Positions 6,758 to 56,931 of a DNA stretch of 64,000 nucleotides are shown piece after piece; position 1 is the first letter of the stretch; each line of letters opens with the position of its first letter. Made by a program: the position numbers and the translations under genes. The stretch is from Escherichia phage FL15: the sequence record PP400778. One strand, 5' to 3'. Below the pieces are notes generated by a model, which was given only the letters and a program-made list of their open reading frames with translations, searched no databases and was not told where the DNA came from.

Positions 6758-7321
6758 TCATCCTCTTTTTGGAAAATTTAAATAAGCATACTCGCCAACT
6801 ATTTCATGTGCTGCACGGTCATAAGCCTTAGCCGCCTCAACTTCTGTCTCAAAGTATCCTAGATGTATATTCTTTCGATTGATAACAATATACGCCTTCC
6901 ACGGCTTTTTCTTGCTTGGTGATAATGATACACCTTTATATTTGCTATGGCAAGCCTTTTTCTTTGAGACGTTAAACTGATTTTGCTGTTCGGTTGCTTC
7001 TCTCATGTTTGACGGTCTATTGTTAGTTTTGTCTTGGTCTATGTGATCTATTCGTTCAACCTGAGTACCATACTCTAAAAACCAGACAACTCTATGTACA
7101 AACAGATTAAGTTTATGACCATTGTTGTAAAATGTAAAGTATAAATATCCTTCTTTATGGAGACATACCCTTACCACATCACCTTTTTTGTATATGGACC
7201 CTTCTTTTCGGAATCCAGCAGCTACAGAATCCTTTAAATGGTATAATATTCCATCGACATGATAGAATCTACCTTTTATCGCTTTCTGTGTCTCGATATC
7301 CCAAAATTTTGTTTTTGCCAC
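6758..7321 (-). CDS. free-standing HNH homing endonuclease with AP2 DNA-binding domain
   Basis: HNH motif (HRVVWFLEYG...IDHID.DK.NNRPSNMREAT) and AP2-like YKGVS...WKAYI...HLGYFETEVEAAKAYD; likely GTG start with GAGGTG SD; paralog at 30558-31121. Confidence 0.8.
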   Translation of the reverse strand: MAKTKFWDIETQKAIKGRFYHVDGILYHLKDSVAAGFRKEGSIYKKGDVVRVCLHKEGYLYFTFYNNGHKLNLFVHRVVWFLEYGTQVERIDHIDQDKTNNRPSNMREATEQQNQFNVSKKKACHSKYKGVSLSPSKKKPWKAYIVINRKNIHLGYFETEVEAAKAYDRAAHEIVGEYAYLNFPKRG

Positions 7322-14049: not shown

Positions 14050-16809
14050 ATGGCAGATTTACAGAGAATCCAATTTAAAAGAACAAGTACGGCAGGTCGC
14101 AAGCCGGATGCGAATATTCTAACTCCGGGTGAACTTGCTATTAACCTAGCGGATCGAAAACTATATACAAAAGATGACAGCAATAATGTAATTACTTTGG
14201 GACACTTTCGCGGTGAGTTGCCATCTGATGCAAATTTAGATAATTATGGACCTACTGGTAAATTTACTGGCGTTTGGTCTAAATCAAGTTCAACAAATGC
14301 GCAGCCAGCAAATAAATTCCCAGAAGCGAATGCTGTAGGTGTATTAGAAGTATTTGTGGCTGGTCAATTTGCTGGCAGTCAGCGTTATACTGTTAGATCT
14401 GGTAACGTTTATATCCGTTCTTTGTCTGCGAAATGGAATGGTGTAGATGGTCCATGGGGTCCGTGGCTCAATATTCAAAATGGCACACGTCCACTATCAA
14501 CTACACTAGACTTGAATACTTTAGGTGATGCTTCTCATTTTGGGTTATGGCGAAATAGTTCAAGTTCCATTGCATCATTTTCTCGAAATTACCCAGAAGA
14601 AGGTGGTCTCGCGCAAGGTCTTTTAGAAATTTATGAAGGTGGTAACTATTCTTGCACGCAACGTTATACTACCCGAATGGGTGTTGTATATGTTCGTTGT
14701 CTTGCAGGTGCATGGGATCCAGAAGCTCCGAATTGGGGACCGTGGCAACAAGTAGGTATGGTTACTCCCAGCACATTCTATGACGGGGATCTTAATAATT
14801 TTCGTTCTCCTGGCTTGTATAACATTTTAGGGACTGATGCCGTTATTAACCGTCCAGTTGCAGAAGGTGTTCCGGTTGAGATGACCGGATTGCTTGAGGT
14901 TAAACAGCGTGCTTCCGGTGGCGCTATTTTCCAACGTTTCACTACCGCAGGAACGGGTGCAACTACGCGATCTCGCGTGTTTGAACGTGCAATGACAAAT
15001 AATATCTGGGGAAATTGGTACGAAGTATATACGTCCTATTCTATGCCAATTACTTTGGGTATGGGTGGTGTTAAAACTCAATTAGCGGAGCTAGATTGGC
15101 AAACATTTGATTTTGTTCCTGGTAGTATGTTTAGCGTTCCTTTGAACAAAATAAAGAACATGCCAGCAAATATGAATTGGGGTACGATTGACGGAGACTT
15201 GGTTATGTTTTCTGTCGGTCCTAGCGAACACACTGGCACAGGACGTACTGTTCAGGTTTGGCGTGGTACTGTATCCCAGACAAACTACCGTTATTTTGTC
15301 GTTCGTGTGTTCGGTAATTCTGGAAATAGAACTTGCACAGTTCGCCGTGTTGTTCTTGAAGATGGATCACATACTTGGACTGCTCAACAAAACTTTAGGG
15401 GATTGTTGAATATCACTGCTGCTGTTAATCTTGGTGCTAATCAGAAAATTTCACTTGCTCCAGGAGCATATATTCAAGCCCCTGCTAGCGGTTCTGGTTC
15501 TAATACTTACGCGAATCAGAATACTACCATTGCACCATTATATCAGGCCATTGACGATTCAAATAAAAACCAGTTTGCGCCAATTGTTAAACAGAAAAAC
15601 ACTGTAACAAATATTACTATGGCTTCTGGTATGGATATTGCTAGTTCAGAATATCGTATCGTTGCTCAGGGTGATTTATCCGCTACTGGAACTACAGCCA
15701 CTGAATTAGCTACATGGCGTTTCTTGCCGTCTGGCCGATTCATGTCACAAAGCCGAGTTTATGCTGGCGCAGCATTCTTGAACACTGATGGTAACATTGC
15801 TGGTTCAATCTGGAAGAAATACAACGATGCAACCAATTTAGATGCTGCCTTGAATACTCGCCTAGGTAAAGGCGGTGATACGATGACAGGTCGGTTAACA
15901 ATCAATGCACCTAATGATTCTATCGTATTATCAACAACTGCTAGTAATTCTTTGCATATTCGCGGTGACATAGACGGGACTGGTAACTGGTATATTGGCA
16001 AGGGTGGTGCTGATAATGGATTAGCGTTCTATAGTTATGCTACTAATGCTGCTGTAAACATTACAAACGCGGGGGATATCGCTCTAAGTCCAAAAGGCAT
16101 CGAAATGACTCATGTCAATAACGTTCGATTCTATGTTCATGGTGAACGTTGGACTGCTAGCCAATCTGGAGGTTGGAACGACCAATGGGGATTAGAAGCT
16201 CCGATATTTGTTGACCACGGCTATGTTGGACCAGACAGTTATTATCCGATTATCAAAGGAAGAAGTTTAATCACCAATCAAGGATATACAACTGCCGTCG
16301 ATTTTGGTCTACGTCGTGTCCCTAACAATTGGGGGCAAGCAATTATTCGTGTTGGATCTGCGGAAAACTCGCCAGCGGCTGGTCATCCTCAAGCTGTATT
16401 CGAGTTCCATCATGATGGTACTTTCTATTCTCCAGGTAATGGTAACTTTAACGATGTGTATATTCGTTCCGATGGTCGTCTTAAGATTAATAAAAAAGAG
16501 CTAGAAAACGGAGCACTTGAAAAAGTATGTCGACTGAAAGTTTATATTTACGATAAAGTTAAGTCTATTAAAGACCGTAGTGTTATTAAACGTGAAGTTG
16601 GTATTATTGCTCAGGACCTTGAAAAGGAATTACCGGAAGCTGTATCTAAAGTTGAAGTTGATGGATCTGATGTTCTGACAATTTCTAACTCTGCAGTGAA
16701 TGCTCTTTTAATTAAGGCTATTCAGGAAATGAGTGAAGAAATTAAAGAATTGAAAACGCCTCTCTTTACTAAAATTGCTCGCAAAATTAGTAAATATTTT
16801 AAATTCTAA
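14050..16809 (+). CDS. 37: long tail fibre distal subunit gp37 with C-terminal intramolecular chaperone domain
   Basis: 919 aa; N-terminus MADLQRIQFKRTSTAGRKPDANILTPGELAINLADRKLYTKDDS matches gp37; C-terminal ~100 aa (GIIAQDLEKELPEAV...ISNSAVNALLIKAIQE) resembles S74-type intramolecular chaperone. Confidence 0.9.
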   Translation: MADLQRIQFKRTSTAGRKPDANILTPGELAINLADRKLYTKDDSNNVITLGHFRGELPSDANLDNYGPTGKFTGVWSKSSSTNAQPANKFPEANAVGVLEVFVAGQFAGSQRYTVRSGNVYIRSLSAKWNGVDGPWGPWLNIQNGTRPLSTTLDLNTLGDASHFGLWRNSSSSIASFSRNYPEEGGLAQGLLEIYEGGNYSCTQRYTTRMGVVYVRCLAGAWDPEAPNWGPWQQVGMVTPSTFYDGDLNNFRSPGLYNILGTDAVINRPVAEGVPVEMTGLLEVKQRASGGAIFQRFTTAGTGATTRSRVFERAMTNNIWGNWYEVYTSYSMPITLGMGGVKTQLAELDWQTFDFVPGSMFSVPLNKIKNMPANMNWGTIDGDLVMFSVGPSEHTGTGRTVQVWRGTVSQTNYRYFVVRVFGNSGNRTCTVRRVVLEDGSHTWTAQQNFRGLLNITAAVNLGANQKISLAPGAYIQAPASGSGSNTYANQNTTIAPLYQAIDDSNKNQFAPIVKQKNTVTNITMASGMDIASSEYRIVAQGDLSATGTTATELATWRFLPSGRFMSQSRVYAGAAFLNTDGNIAGSIWKKYNDATNLDAALNTRLGKGGDTMTGRLTINAPNDSIVLSTTASNSLHIRGDIDGTGNWYIGKGGADNGLAFYSYATNAAVNITNAGDIALSPKGIEMTHVNNVRFYVHGERWTASQSGGWNDQWGLEAPIFVDHGYVGPDSYYPIIKGRSLITNQGYTTAVDFGLRRVPNNWGQAIIRVGSAENSPAAGHPQAVFEFHHDGTFYSPGNGNFNDVYIRSDGRLKINKKELENGALEKVCRLKVYIYDKVKSIKDRSVIKREVGIIAQDLEKELPEAVSKVEVDGSDVLTISNSAVNALLIKAIQEMSEEIKELKTPLFTKIARKISKYFKF

Positions 16810-16844: not shown

Positions 16845-17627
16845 ATGGCAGTAGTTGGAGTTCCTGGCTGGATTGGAAGTTCAGCCGTAAATGAAACGGG
16901 TCAGCGCTGGATGAGTCAAGCGGCTGGTCAATTAAGATTGGGTGTTCCTTGCTGGATGAGTCAATTTTCAGGTCGCTCGCGAGAAATTATTCACACGCTT
17001 GGCGCAGACCATAACTTCAATGGTCAGTGGTTCCGTGATAGATGCTTTGAGGCAGGTAATGCACCTATAGTGTTTAATATTACCGGTGATTTAGTATCAT
17101 ATTCTAAAGATGTTCCTTTATTCTTCATGTACGGAGATACACCAAATGAATATGTTCAGTTGAATATACATGGCGTAACGATGTATGGTCGTGGCGGGAA
17201 TGGCGGTAGCAATGGTCCTGGATCAGCCGGGGGGCATTGTATTCAAAATGATATTGGTGGGAGACTAAGAATTAATAATGGTGGAGCTATTGCAGGTGGC
17301 GGTGGCGGTGGCGGTGGCGGGTATTATTCTCCTTTTTCACAAATGAGATTAACCTTTGGCGGTGGCGGTGGGCGTCCGTTTGGTGCGCCCGGCGGATCTA
17401 TTGATATGCAATCAGGCGCAACTGCTGGTACTCTTTATGCGCCCGGATCGGGGTCCGTGAACGGTGTCTATAATGGCGGAAGCGGTGGTGAGGTAGGTGC
17501 TGCGGGAGGTAGATGTAATATTCGTGGTCAAGGATCTGAATATAATGGCGGCGATTCTGGATATGCTGTTATAGGGTCTTCTCCAACGTGGCAAAATCGC
17601 GGAGCTATTTACGGACCGGCTGTTTAG
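16845..17627 (+). CDS. 38: T2-type receptor-binding adhesin gp38 (glycine-rich motifs)
   Basis: 260 aa; N-terminus [15 protein letters not shown] and multiple poly-Gly islands separating variable segments are the T2/T6-type gp38 architecture. Confidence 0.85.
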
Positions 17628-17690
17628 ATGTAATTATAAAAAGAATTAAGGAAACCTCCCACGGAAGGGAACTACTAAGGAGAAACGGCT

Positions 17691-17930
17691 ATGGTCTATA
17701 ATATCGTCATTGGTGCTTTGTCTAATTTCGGAATGAAACTATTGTCAAAGTTAATTAGTGAAAAGATGCTCACTAAAATTTTCTTCTATTGCGCTCGTCG
17801 TCTTGCGTCTTATACCAATACGCCAATTGATGATCGTTTTGTGGAAGAACTTTATAAGGAGTTTAATAAAGATCAGTCAGAAGATAGCAACGAGCAAGAT
17901 AAACCTAGTGATAGTCAACTACCTAAATAA
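17691..17930 (+). CDS. hypothetical small protein with hydrophobic N-terminus and acidic C-terminus
   Basis: 79-aa ORF with AAGGAG SD on the late strand between gp38 and holin t; no counterpart at this position in the T4 map as I recall it. Confidence 0.55.
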   Translation: MVYNIVIGALSNFGMKLLSKLISEKMLTKIFFYCARRLASYTNTPIDDRFVEELYKEFNKDQSEDSNEQDKPSDSQLPK

Positions 17931-17963: not shown

Positions 17964-18620
17964 ATGCAAGTTTCTGAAAAAGGGAAAGACTTTGCTATCT
18001 CAAATGTCCTGCGCGCTATTTTCACAACTAAAAGCACGGAGTTGCTCGTACTTCGTGTTTTTGCTGCCGTCGTGTTGTCCATATTGGCATTTGTCGTTTA
18101 TAGTAAAAACGAGTTATTTGCGCTTTATAAAGAGACTCGTTATGAGACTTATGCTCACATTCTCCAGGTAGAGAAAGACCGCAATTTTGATAATGCAGCA
18201 CAGGAGCAGTTACAGATAGTTCATGTGTCGGCTGATGCCGATTTTTCTGCTGTTTTTAGTTTTCGTCCGAAAAACCTAAACTATTTTGTTGATTTGGTGG
18301 CATATGAAGGAAAGCTACCGCATACAATCGATGAAAAAAATTTAGGCGGATTCCCTATCAATAAAACGAGTGAAGAATATCGTAGGCATCTTTTAGGTAA
18401 ATCATATTTTACCGATAAAGATTTCCAGTATATTCCATCAAGAGAAAAGAAATTAGAGAGTATCGATATAGGGTTTATGTATTCTTGTCCTATATTCAAT
18501 CTCGATAATGTCTATTCTGGTAGTATCGCCATTTCATGGAAGAATAAACCGGATATTGACATTGAGAATTTAGATACTCTTTGCAATCAATCTGCCAGAA
18601 TCCTCGGAAGGATTAGATAA
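17964..18620 (+). CDS. t: holin t
   Basis: 218 aa; matches T4 holin (LEQLQIVH.S.DADFSAV.SFRPKNLNYFVD..AYEGKLP, MYSCP.FNLDN.Y.G.I, ARILGR). Confidence 0.95.
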   Translation: MQVSEKGKDFAISNVLRAIFTTKSTELLVLRVFAAVVLSILAFVVYSKNELFALYKETRYETYAHILQVEKDRNFDNAAQEQLQIVHVSADADFSAVFSFRPKNLNYFVDLVAYEGKLPHTIDEKNLGGFPINKTSEEYRRHLLGKSYFTDKDFQYIPSREKKLESIDIGFMYSCPIFNLDNVYSGSIAISWKNKPDIDIENLDTLCNQSARILGRIR

Positions 18621-18626
18621 CTTAAA

Positions 18627-18659
18627 GGGGAAGCCTTTCGGCCTCCCCTTCTTTTTATT
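18627..18659. terminator. intrinsic terminator at the convergence of the late (+) and early (-) blocks
   Basis: Hairpin GGGGAAGCC-TTTC-GGCCTCCCC followed by TTCTTTTTATT on the plus strand. Confidence 0.65.
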
Positions 18660-18903
18660 GGGGCATAGAAGCCCCTGAATCACATTTTGACGCTGTATGA
18701 TGAAAACAGGTAGCGTACCAGTCATCTGCTTGTTTGTCTTCGTCAGAAAACGCGTAATTTCGTTGTGTGCCGTTTTCTACTTTGACCAGTGCAATAGCTG
18801 TTTCTGGAAGATCAATCAGTCGGACAAAATCACCATCTTCCCACTCTACACGAGCAATATCATATCCCATCTCAAAGTATACAATCGCTTGTTCTAATTT
18901 CAT
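18655..18903 (-). CDS. small protein, possibly DUF2829-like
   Basis: 82 aa; start ATG overlaps upstream stop (ATGA coupling); pattern A..Y...G..IAR.EW...................DDW resembles DUF2829 as I remember it. Confidence 0.5.
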   Translation of the reverse strand: MKLEQAIVYFEMGYDIARVEWEDGDFVRLIDLPETAIALVKVENGTQRNYAFSDEDKQADDWYATCFHHTASKCDSGASMPQ

Positions 18904-55461: not shown

Positions 55462-56931
55462 CTATTCCCCATTACCATTATACTTTCTTTGCTTAGTTAT
55501 CCACACTCTAACCATCTCTACAGATTCACCGTCAGACGGATCAAGAGTTTTTCCTTTTTTCTTCATGCGGTACTTAAATCCGTTAAATCTTGCATTCTCT
55601 TGCTCGTTAAAGTCGAACATCTTTTTAAATGATTTTCGCCCTTTACGCTCACCACATTCTAGCGGAATCATTCGGTCTGTTATTACATTGGCATTAGGTA
55701 GAAACGTTTTTAGATAATCCACCAACGCCCAATCAGGAACATATAGATTAACATTCTCCTTGCTCTCGTTGTCTCTCAGGTTACAACGCAAACATAATTG
55801 AAATGCTGGTTCCAGATAATCAGACACATGACGCGCTTTCAAAAACTCGTTTGTCGGGAGATCACAACTATTAGCAAGACCTTTTAAAATATCAATCTCC
55901 CATCGTTGAGGGTTAAAGCTGAACATCACAGCAACATTTTTATGATGAATGTAAGAGTTAAGACCATAAGATCCGTAAGGTATCCGCTCACCAATACCAT
56001 TTGTACACGCTTCACGGTCCCGATTCACGGTATAAATGAAGTCATCGCCACATTCATTTTTAACCATATCAACAAGACGTTCAAAGGTATTGTTTGTTTC
56101 TGACTGGTGACGCGACCATCGTTCAGAGTCCGTCATAAGGATGATATTAACTCTATCTGTATTTTTATACTCTTTGAAATATAGTCTGGATTCTAGCGCA
56201 CTCGGAACAAAATCGCAATTTGCATAGTATCGTAGATACTTCCCACTATATGTATCAAAGAGATTTGCACATGCTATCGTAACCTTTTTAAAGTCTCCCC
56301 ACGTACCGTGTTTGTTATCGTTCAAGAAAACAATTTTCGACCCATTCTTCCGGTGTCCTTCGTTATGTTTTACCATAACGTTGATTTTCTTCTCTAATAA
56401 CGCCTCATAAAGCCCTCTAAGAGAAGAATCGATCATATCAGTACCATCCTTTGCACTTTCTATCTTTTCTTTGATAGCGGCCTTCTCAGAGTCTTTTAGA
56501 ACTAAGTTCTGTAGGCATTCCGATTCGTCGGCGATTGGTTCGCAATGCTTCGTGATAAGTTCAAGATTAGACTTAAACGGATACTCATTAAATTCAACCA
56601 GTTGAGGAACTTCATCAATGTAAAGAGCATATTCACCAAAAATTTTTGAACGTTCCATATTAGATAACGCTGTATGTGTAATGAATATCACATCAGCACC
56701 GTCTTTAACTGATTGCATTATCGACGCTTGCACTGTCTTAAGGCTTCTTAGTCGTGTGCTATCAATCAAGACAGCACGACCACCCATTCTTTTAAACTTA
56801 TTGTAAGATTGTTCACTTAAAACACGAGATGGCGAAGCAATAACCGCTTTTTCTTTTGTCTCTAGGACGTGGGAAAGTATAGCATCAGTTTTCCCCGCCG
56901 CTGGCAATGCGATTAATGTTTCAATCTTCAT
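55462..56931 (-). CDS. P-loop NTPase of unknown function (489 aa)
   Basis: N-terminal Walker A-like LPAAGKT and Walker B-like ALYIDEV; large Cys/Trp/Tyr-rich C-terminal region without recognisable motifs; sits where T4 has alpha-gt. Confidence 0.6.
   Translation of the reverse strand: MKIETLIALPAAGKTDAILSHVLETKEKAVIASPSRVLSEQSYNKFKRMGGRAVLIDSTRLRSLKTVQASIMQSVKDGADVIFITHTALSNMERSKIFGEYALYIDEVPQLVEFNEYPFKSNLELITKHCEPIADESECLQNLVLKDSEKAAIKEKIESAKDGTDMIDSSLRGLYEALLEKKINVMVKHNEGHRKNGSKIVFLNDNKHGTWGDFKKVTIACANLFDTYSGKYLRYYANCDFVPSALESRLYFKEYKNTDRVNIILMTDSERWSRHQSETNNTFERLVDMVKNECGDDFIYTVNRDREACTNGIGERIPYGSYGLNSYIHHKNVAVMFSFNPQRWEIDILKGLANSCDLPTNEFLKARHVSDYLEPAFQLCLRCNLRDNESKENVNLYVPDWALVDYLKTFLPNANVITDRMIPLECGERKGRKSFKKMFDFNEQENARFNGFKYRMKKKGKTLDPSDGESVEMVRVWITKQRKYNGNGE

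Follow-up and report, generated by a model that had tools for sequence, protein, structure and literature searches.

What is the role of a small gene that lies between an adhesin gene and a holin gene in a T4-like phage, at a place where T4 itself has none? This question is raised by a 64,000-nucleotide stretch of Escherichia phage FL15 DNA (sequence record PP400778), called here the window, in which a 79-aa open reading frame (ORF) follows gp38 and precedes holin gene t on the late strand. An earlier sequence-only reading had credited this ORF with a good Shine-Dalgarno sequence, described it as an extra gene relative to T4 and proposed that its product acts either in lysis control or in tail-fibre/adhesin assembly. 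The ORF, its strand and its Shine-Dalgarno sequence were all borne out, and the gene order stated for T4 is also correct: gene 38 stops at 160200, 20 nt short of t, which begins at 160221, and no gene lies between them. The following features define the locus:

14050-16809, + strand: gp37, with Pfam gp37_trimer and Peptidase_S74 domains
16845-17627, + strand: gp38 adhesin, matching PF05268 GP38 (E 2e-70) and PF21721 Gp38_N
17628..17637, strand not applicable: module joint, with the gp38 adhesin module on its 5' side and ~99% RB49-like identity from 17637 on
17677..17682, + strand: Shine-Dalgarno AAGGAG, 8 nt 5' of the ATG, read from the sequence
17691..17930, + strand: P18-family gene of 79 aa with an ATG start and a TAA stop, orthologue of RB49p252/Dc5
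17964-18620, + strand: holin t, 218 aa, matching PF11031 Phage_holin_T (E 8.5e-61) and the phrog_860 holin family (E 5e-88)

Copies of the 79-aa ORF were detected by tblastn in 388 phage records (58 at at least 80% identity and 330 more distant) and its dN/dS is 0.24-0.40 among close relatives, so that it is not a chance reading frame. When compared with a 70%-identical metagenomic copy, dN amounts to 0.23 and synonymous sites are saturated. Judged by these comparisons, the ORF is a real gene under purifying selection. It is followed on the same strand, after 33 nt, by holin t, its likely functional partner. The first gene after t is found on the opposite strand (window 18655-18903, - strand) and encodes an 82-aa protein matching PF11195, the Thoeris anti-defence 2 (Tad2)-like domain, with E 1e-5 and 26.4 bits at a cut-off of 25 bits.

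The window belongs to a Krischvirus, i.e. an RB49-like phage, and not to T4. A 1.8-kb segment of it that spans gp38 to t shows 92-98% identity to a few Krischvirus genomes (MIZ4, KMB43, FL04, kvi and others), and in megablast searches the part that comprises the ORF and t shows ~99% identity to RB49, JSE, Phi1 and dozens more. The ORF and t co-occur in every Krischvirus record among the matches listed. The gene is thus extra in comparison with T4 only, because it is standard in Krischvirus and has been annotated since the RB49 genome; within the genus the label does not hold. In the RB49 reference the gene is annotated twice, as RB49p252 (79 aa, GTG start; RB49 154699-154938, L001 4001-4240) and as Dc5 (65 aa, starting at an internal Met), and a 2019 paper draws "the Dc5 ORF" of pseudo-T-evens (PMC6832132). 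The Dc5 start corresponds to Met15 and lacks a Shine-Dalgarno sequence like that of the long form; the window copy carries an ATG at the long start behind a good Shine-Dalgarno sequence, and distant homologues align from the long N-terminus. We favour the 79-aa form because of this Shine-Dalgarno sequence and because its N-terminal helix aligns with the N-termini of the distant homologues. The RB49 orthologue has been annotated since 2003, and databases together with a 2007 paper already cover the gene, the family to which it belongs and its homology with RB49.

The T4 late-promoter motif TATAAATA does not occur near the 79-aa gene, the nearest copies being located at 7140 and 12451, and neither a sigma-70-like site nor a + strand terminator was found between gp38 and t. 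A small inverted repeat at 17655-17668 was discarded as a + strand element, as it pairs well on the - strand only. Since no promoter-like site or late-promoter motif lies nearby, the 79-aa protein would be made late, probably on a read-through transcript shared with gp37/gp38 and holin t.

The gp38 module on the 5' side has a different history from the ORF. It is common to only about 10 of the ~400 related records, and most RB49-like phages lack gp38, yet they keep the ORF and t at ~99% identity. Moreover, megablast hits H11-H30 all begin at query position 793, equivalent to window position 17637, ten bases past the gp38 stop. On the evidence of this joint, the gp38 adhesin module is a unit swapped 5' of a fixed ORF-t block, and the ORF itself has no link to gp38. 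Co-variation with gp38 type, suggested previously as a check of the gene's role, was consequently not observed, the ORF being present in RB49-like phages with or without gp38. Note also that a gene for a GP38-type adhesin comes after gp37 of the window, even though gp37 itself has an intramolecular-chaperone domain of the Peptidase_S74 type in its C-terminal part (aa 807-865); the Felix O1-like contig L056 (353-5566) has the same order of S74 fibre, Gp38_N, P18-like and single-transmembrane-domain (TMD) protein genes.

To which family does the product belong? In PHROGs, the 79-aa ORF falls into phrog_402 (E 4.4e-20), a family of unknown function that also receives gp l of phage PM2 (E 8.2e-14), the 51-aa protein P18 encoded at NC_000867 9922-10077. 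Pfam-A and NCBIfam scans of the ORF returned nothing usable, TPR_LAA1_C and DUF1287 being weak matches far below their cut-offs that were rejected as domains. The Pfam result is explained by the release scanned, which does not contain model PF26925. This model, named Phage_PM2_Gpl, is precomputed for all but three of the 107 profile hits; PF26925.1 is recorded for relatives of the ORF at 87-91% identity, and some PM2-clade proteins carry the same model. When 50 diverse homologues were aligned by hhalign to the single PM2 gp l sequence, the probability was 84.9% (E 6.4e-6), and it reached 93.4% (E 2.6e-7, covering 43/51 residues) against an alignment of 13 PM2-clade proteins. The homology between the ORF and PM2 P18 is accordingly remote (~20% identity, 85-93% hhalign probability) but consistent, and it agrees with the earlier work of Krupovic and Bamford (2007), who listed P18 homologues in PaP3, Felix O1, RB49 and three cyanomyoviruses (PMC1950889). 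At E <= 1e-3 a narrow Krischvirus profile retrieved no more than 20 clusters, which did not extend the results of the other searches. A Foldseek comparison of the AlphaFold2 (AF2) model with the PDB gave no match at E <= 0.001, with ribosomal helices as top hits, and was set aside.

Two database curiosities surfaced among the family members. "L-fuculose phosphate aldolase" is a misannotation of P18-family proteins in Yersinia phage vB_YenM_P778 (L008 4001-4219) and Escherichia phage JLBYU28 (H47). The record of "Staphylococcus phage SA1" (GU169904.1 86647-86817, H56) contains a Felix O1-type copy of the gene with 49% identity to the window protein, and we suggest that this record is mislabelled or mixed, because one would not expect such a copy in a phage that infects Gram-positive bacteria.

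The AF2 model, built from the 50-sequence alignment, predicts three helices (aa 2-21, 24-41 and 45-69) with a mean pLDDT of 80.5. The parts of the protein map onto the window as follows:

17694..17813, + strand: two N-terminal hydrophobic/amphipathic helices, aa 2-21 and 24-41 (AF2, pLDDT 83-91)
17814..17840, + strand: signature T42-x-T44-P-x-D47-D48-x-F50 at the start of helix 3 (50-homologue alignment)
17874..17927, + strand: acidic Ser/Asp/Glu-rich C-terminal tail, aa 62-79 (pLDDT 54-59)

Averaged over the family, hydrophobicity <H> is 0.51 for helix 1 and 0.19 for helix 2, with a muH of about 0.34. A narrow polar stripe runs along the otherwise hydrophobic helix 1. Among family members Lys is conserved at positions 8 and 16, the former being Gly in the window protein, and Glu24 is near-invariant. 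Within the signature, D47 is invariant among the 50 diverse homologues and T42, T44 and D48 are at least 90% conserved; the PM2 clade has K-S/T-x-N-x-L-D-D/N-E-L at this site. Charge is unevenly distributed, with family means of +2.3 for the N-half and -1.5 for the C-half; the net charge is -1 for the window protein and 0 to +1 for other members. The acidic tail is absent or different in Felix O1-type, Vibrio-type and PM2 members, and it is predicted to be a Krischvirus-specific disordered extension. The best 19-residue Kyte-Doolittle mean of the 79-aa product is 1.31, compared with 2.86 for the TMD of T, and a simple Hessa-scale sum gives +6.8 kcal/mol compared with -2.1 kcal/mol. A signal peptide, a lipobox and a canonical TMD are all missing from its sequence, and its only Cys (C34) lies inside helix 2. 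In Vibrio phage 1.112.O the label "TMhelix containing" was given by the depositors to four proteins, the P18-family member not being among them. Owing to this low hydropathy and to the lack of a signal peptide or lipobox, the product is neither a spanin nor a textbook holin, although helix 1 is borderline as a transmembrane segment. The hydrophobic/amphipathic N-terminus and the acidic tail described previously are thus both present, but the former stays below the usual threshold for calling a transmembrane segment, and the latter is modelled at low confidence, lineage-specific and absent from most family members.

Gene neighbourhoods provide further clues regarding function. The family gene lies directly 3' of a GH108 endolysin gene in Vibrio phage 1.112.O (L003), L042 and prophage L051, directly 3' of a Phage_lysozyme/GH24 endolysin gene in L045, L049 and L052 (including Shewanella and Aeromonas prophages), directly 3' of an Amidase_3 endolysin gene in L057, and two small genes 3' of a Peptidase_M15_3 endolysin gene in L058. 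The gene 5' of the family member in L047 and L048 was considered as a transglycosylase but not counted as an endolysin, because Pfam found nothing in it and PHROGs places it in a family of unknown function. In lambdoid phages the slot after the endolysin is normally held by Rz/Rz1, and in prophage L051 the P18-like gene takes this very slot, as the order there is antiterminator Q, holin (phrog_20), GH108 and P18-like, followed by a gene without membrane features. In Ounavirinae (Felix O1, mistaenkt, Panisse, P778 and ~30 IMG/VR contigs) the family gene comes after the tail fibre, and directly after it stands a gene for a 111-121-aa protein, annotated as holin, that has one N-terminal TMD and a coiled coil; Felix O1-like phages have been reported to use a class III holin (PMC4392139). 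Contig L046 has a gene for a 90-aa single-TMD protein and then the P18-like gene, which is the k-l order of PM2. The single-TMD holin-type proteins (PM2 P17, the Felix O1-type, that of L046, and T) show no sequence relation to one another, and the common build of PM2 P17, the Felix O1-type and L046 proteins is one of architecture only. An exception is Aeromonas phage LAh_6, in which the family gene is located between a tail-needle knob gene and an adaptor gene. Otherwise, the neighbours of the family change from one family to another but stay lysis genes, either endolysins of four classes or holin-type genes. This company, of four endolysin classes or of single-TMD holin-like genes, supports a lysis role and disfavours adhesin assembly.

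What is known about the founding member comes from PM2. According to the review PMC6356626 and to PMC1950889, which both refer to Krupovic, Daugelavicius and Bamford (2007), the cytoplasmic membrane of the host is punctured by P17 (gp k), the wall is probably digested by host enzymes, and the disintegration of the outer membrane is aided by P18 (gp l), which experiments showed to be required at this step of lysis. The phenotype of the P18 mutant is given in PMC6356626 as an outer-membrane, not a timing, defect. From the homology and the gene neighbourhoods we consider it probable, though by no means assured, that the product of the 79-aa ORF, a small member of the PM2 P18 (gp l) family built of helices throughout, has an accessory function in lysis. 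The proposal of a role in lysis control would thereby be sustained regarding lysis, through PM2 P18 homology and gene neighbourhoods, but not regarding the control of timing, as the evidence points to an accessory step at the envelope or outer membrane.

The similarity to PM2 P18 consists of common family membership, a helical build, the conserved segment K-x-T/S-x-T/N-x-x-D-D/N-x-F/L, and a gene position at the end of a late operon beside a single-TMD holin gene. Differently from the 51-aa PM2 protein, with which it shares ~20% identity, the 79-aa product is longer at both ends, with about 10 additional residues at the N-terminus, by which helix 1 is completed, and an acidic tail of 18 residues. 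The phage group of the window has its own endolysin and spanins, whereas PM2 has been reported to have neither. Closer relatives are ORF78 of Felix O1 and its orthologues in Ounavirinae ("Phage conserved protein"), which are 44-49% identical over ~60 residues and are likewise encoded after a tail-fibre gene and directly before a holin-type gene whose product has a single TMD in N-in/C-out orientation. They differ in lacking the acidic tail, and the holin-type gene downstream (phrog_4038) is unrelated to T.

How might such a protein act in a Krischvirus? Given that it has no signal peptide, lipobox or canonical TMD, the 79-aa protein would be expected to be cytoplasmic or attached to the inside of the inner membrane, where its two hydrophobic/amphipathic N-terminal helices would keep it. 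Once the T holin had opened the inner membrane and the endolysin had removed the wall, it would gain access to the remaining envelope, and it could then help to break the last barrier, most likely the outer membrane, a function that was shown genetically for PM2 P18 and is extended to the 79-aa protein purely through homology. The pseT.2/pseT.3 spanins of Krischviruses would be supplemented and not replaced by it, and its contribution may be greatest where the outer membrane is stiffened by divalent cations.

Several observations weigh against parts of this scheme. RB49 encodes canonical T4-type spanins pseT.2/pseT.3, spanins are core genes of the genus Krischvirus (PMC10194099), and Felix O1-like phages have spanins as well (PMC4392139); because of these spanins an additional outer-membrane disruptor is not obviously needed in either group. 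In RB49 the 79-aa protein would therefore be redundant, or conditional (e.g. required at high divalent cation concentrations), or would be doing something else. The outer-membrane reading has also to contend with a non-secreted and roughly neutral protein (net -1) that has no evident route to the outer membrane, and the lysis reading with the position of the gene in Krischvirus, Ounavirinae and LAh_6, three lineages in which a tail-fibre or tail-needle gene precedes it. In the 48-kb genome of Vibrio phage 1.112.O, a crude regular-expression scan detected no convincing lipoprotein/o-spanin or lipobox ORF, which weakly fits the role of a spanin substitute there. We would also like to mention ORF17 of this phage (L061 10974-11183), the 69-aa product of which has an N-terminal TMD and a short coiled coil, a build like that of PM2 P17, and which lies far from the pair of endolysin and P18-like genes.

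Comparison with established outer-membrane breakers helps to delimit the accessory lysis protein proposed here. Spanins (lambda Rz/Rz1, T4 PseT.3/PseT.2, T1 gp11) share with it the proposed step, namely outer-membrane disruption as the last act of lysis, and in some family cassettes (L051) the slot after the endolysin. The 79-aa product lacks their TMD and periplasmic coiled coil, lipobox and signal sequence, however, and cannot span the periplasm. In this respect disruptin gp28 of phiKT is more similar, being small, unsecreted, helical and of membrane-active appearance, with a proposed outer-membrane-breaking action that needs no bridge across the periplasm (bioRxiv 10.1101/515445). Disruptin gp28 carries a charge of +7 and resembles an antimicrobial peptide, whereas the 79-aa product has a charge of -1 with a positive N-half and an acidic C-half; gp28 was moreover reported to have almost no homologues and to come from a spanin-less phage, in contrast to the widespread P18 family.

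An alternative is that the 79-aa product is an anti- or pro-holin that binds the holin (T, the Felix O1-type single-TMD coiled-coil protein, or PM2 P17) and tunes its triggering, in a manner functionally like T4 RIII. In four unrelated lineages the family gene does adjoin a holin-type gene with a single TMD, the 79-aa product is close in length to RIII (82 aa), which is likewise helical and genetically tied to T-holin biology, and RB49 has no recognisable rIII at the T4 position. Yet hhalign assigns a probability of 0.1% to the pair of the family and RIII, so that no sequence relation is detectable; in many phages the family gene stands beside endolysins without an adjacent holin, members occur with other holins and in phages that lack T, and in L051 the neighbouring holin is an unrelated one of the two-TMD type. 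The PM2 mutant phenotype cited above from PMC6356626, which concerns the outer membrane and not timing, also speaks against it, and we regard a holin-binding regulator as unlikely. With respect to rIII itself, the T4 position between the 30.x genes and gene 31 is occupied in RB49 by an unrelated 54-aa ORF (126078-126242, L060 7079-7243). A tblastn search with T4 RIII, sampled at 40 listed of 1117 matching records, contained no Krischvirus, and a weak RIII match at window 55517-55690 proved to be spurious, as it runs antisense inside a 489-aa gene.

It is also conceivable, though quite improbable, that the 79-aa product permeabilises membranes itself, as a holin or pinholin would, serving as the sole holin in Vibrio-type phages and as a second one here. 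The TMDs of holins are often just marginally hydrophobic, the family gene is often the only small hydrophobic one beside the endolysin (L003, L057, L058), and helix 1 combines its family <H> of 0.51 and narrow polar stripe with two conserved Lys. Against such a reading stand the Kyte-Doolittle and Hessa-scale values given above, which fall well short of those of the T TMD, the missing transmembrane label of the 1.112.O homologue, the presence of T in Krischviruses, and the assignment of the PM2 holin role to P17 and not to P18 in PMC6356626.

Finally, a tail-fibre/adhesin assembly factor or minor virion component, as the sequence-only reading had offered in its second proposal, would fit the position of family genes 3' of distal tail-fibre/adhesin genes in Krischvirus and Ounavirinae and of the tail-needle knob gene in LAh_6, but it is highly improbable given that the ORF is unchanged when the gp38 module is absent or swapped at joint 17637, that members of the family are encoded by PM2, which has no tail, and by prophages in lysis cassettes remote from the tail genes, and that the product, unlike the tail-fibre chaperones and adhesins gp38, Tfa and gp57A, was assigned to no chaperone or tail family by searches of Pfam, NCBIfam and PHROGs and is not co-inherited with the fibre tip.

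Regarding its wider meaning, the finding as stated matters little, since the gene is a standard, long-annotated gene of RB49-like phages that belongs to a family already entered in Pfam and described in print through its founder. The P18 family nevertheless seems to have been overlooked by the literature on membrane disruptors, as neither the disruptin paper (bioRxiv 10.1101/515445) nor a 2022 review of phage membrane disruptors mentions PM2. As a long shot, P18-type proteins could constitute a widespread second class of non-spanin outer-membrane breakers, neutral and dipolar instead of cationic like the phiKT disruptin, which would occur together with spanins in myoviruses of the T4-like and Felix O1-like groups and be linked genetically to single-TMD holins; or, in the seemingly rIII-less Krischviruses, such a protein could have been recruited as a cytoplasmic partner of T. 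Experiments on P18 come from PM2, a tailless, marine and spanin-less phage, whereas the family is conserved beside a holin gene in two large groups of spanin-bearing enterobacterial myoviruses. The point at stake is whether phages routinely carry two independent routes for breaking the outer membrane, a question that bears on the efficiency of lysis in cation-rich environments and on the engineering of therapeutic phages.
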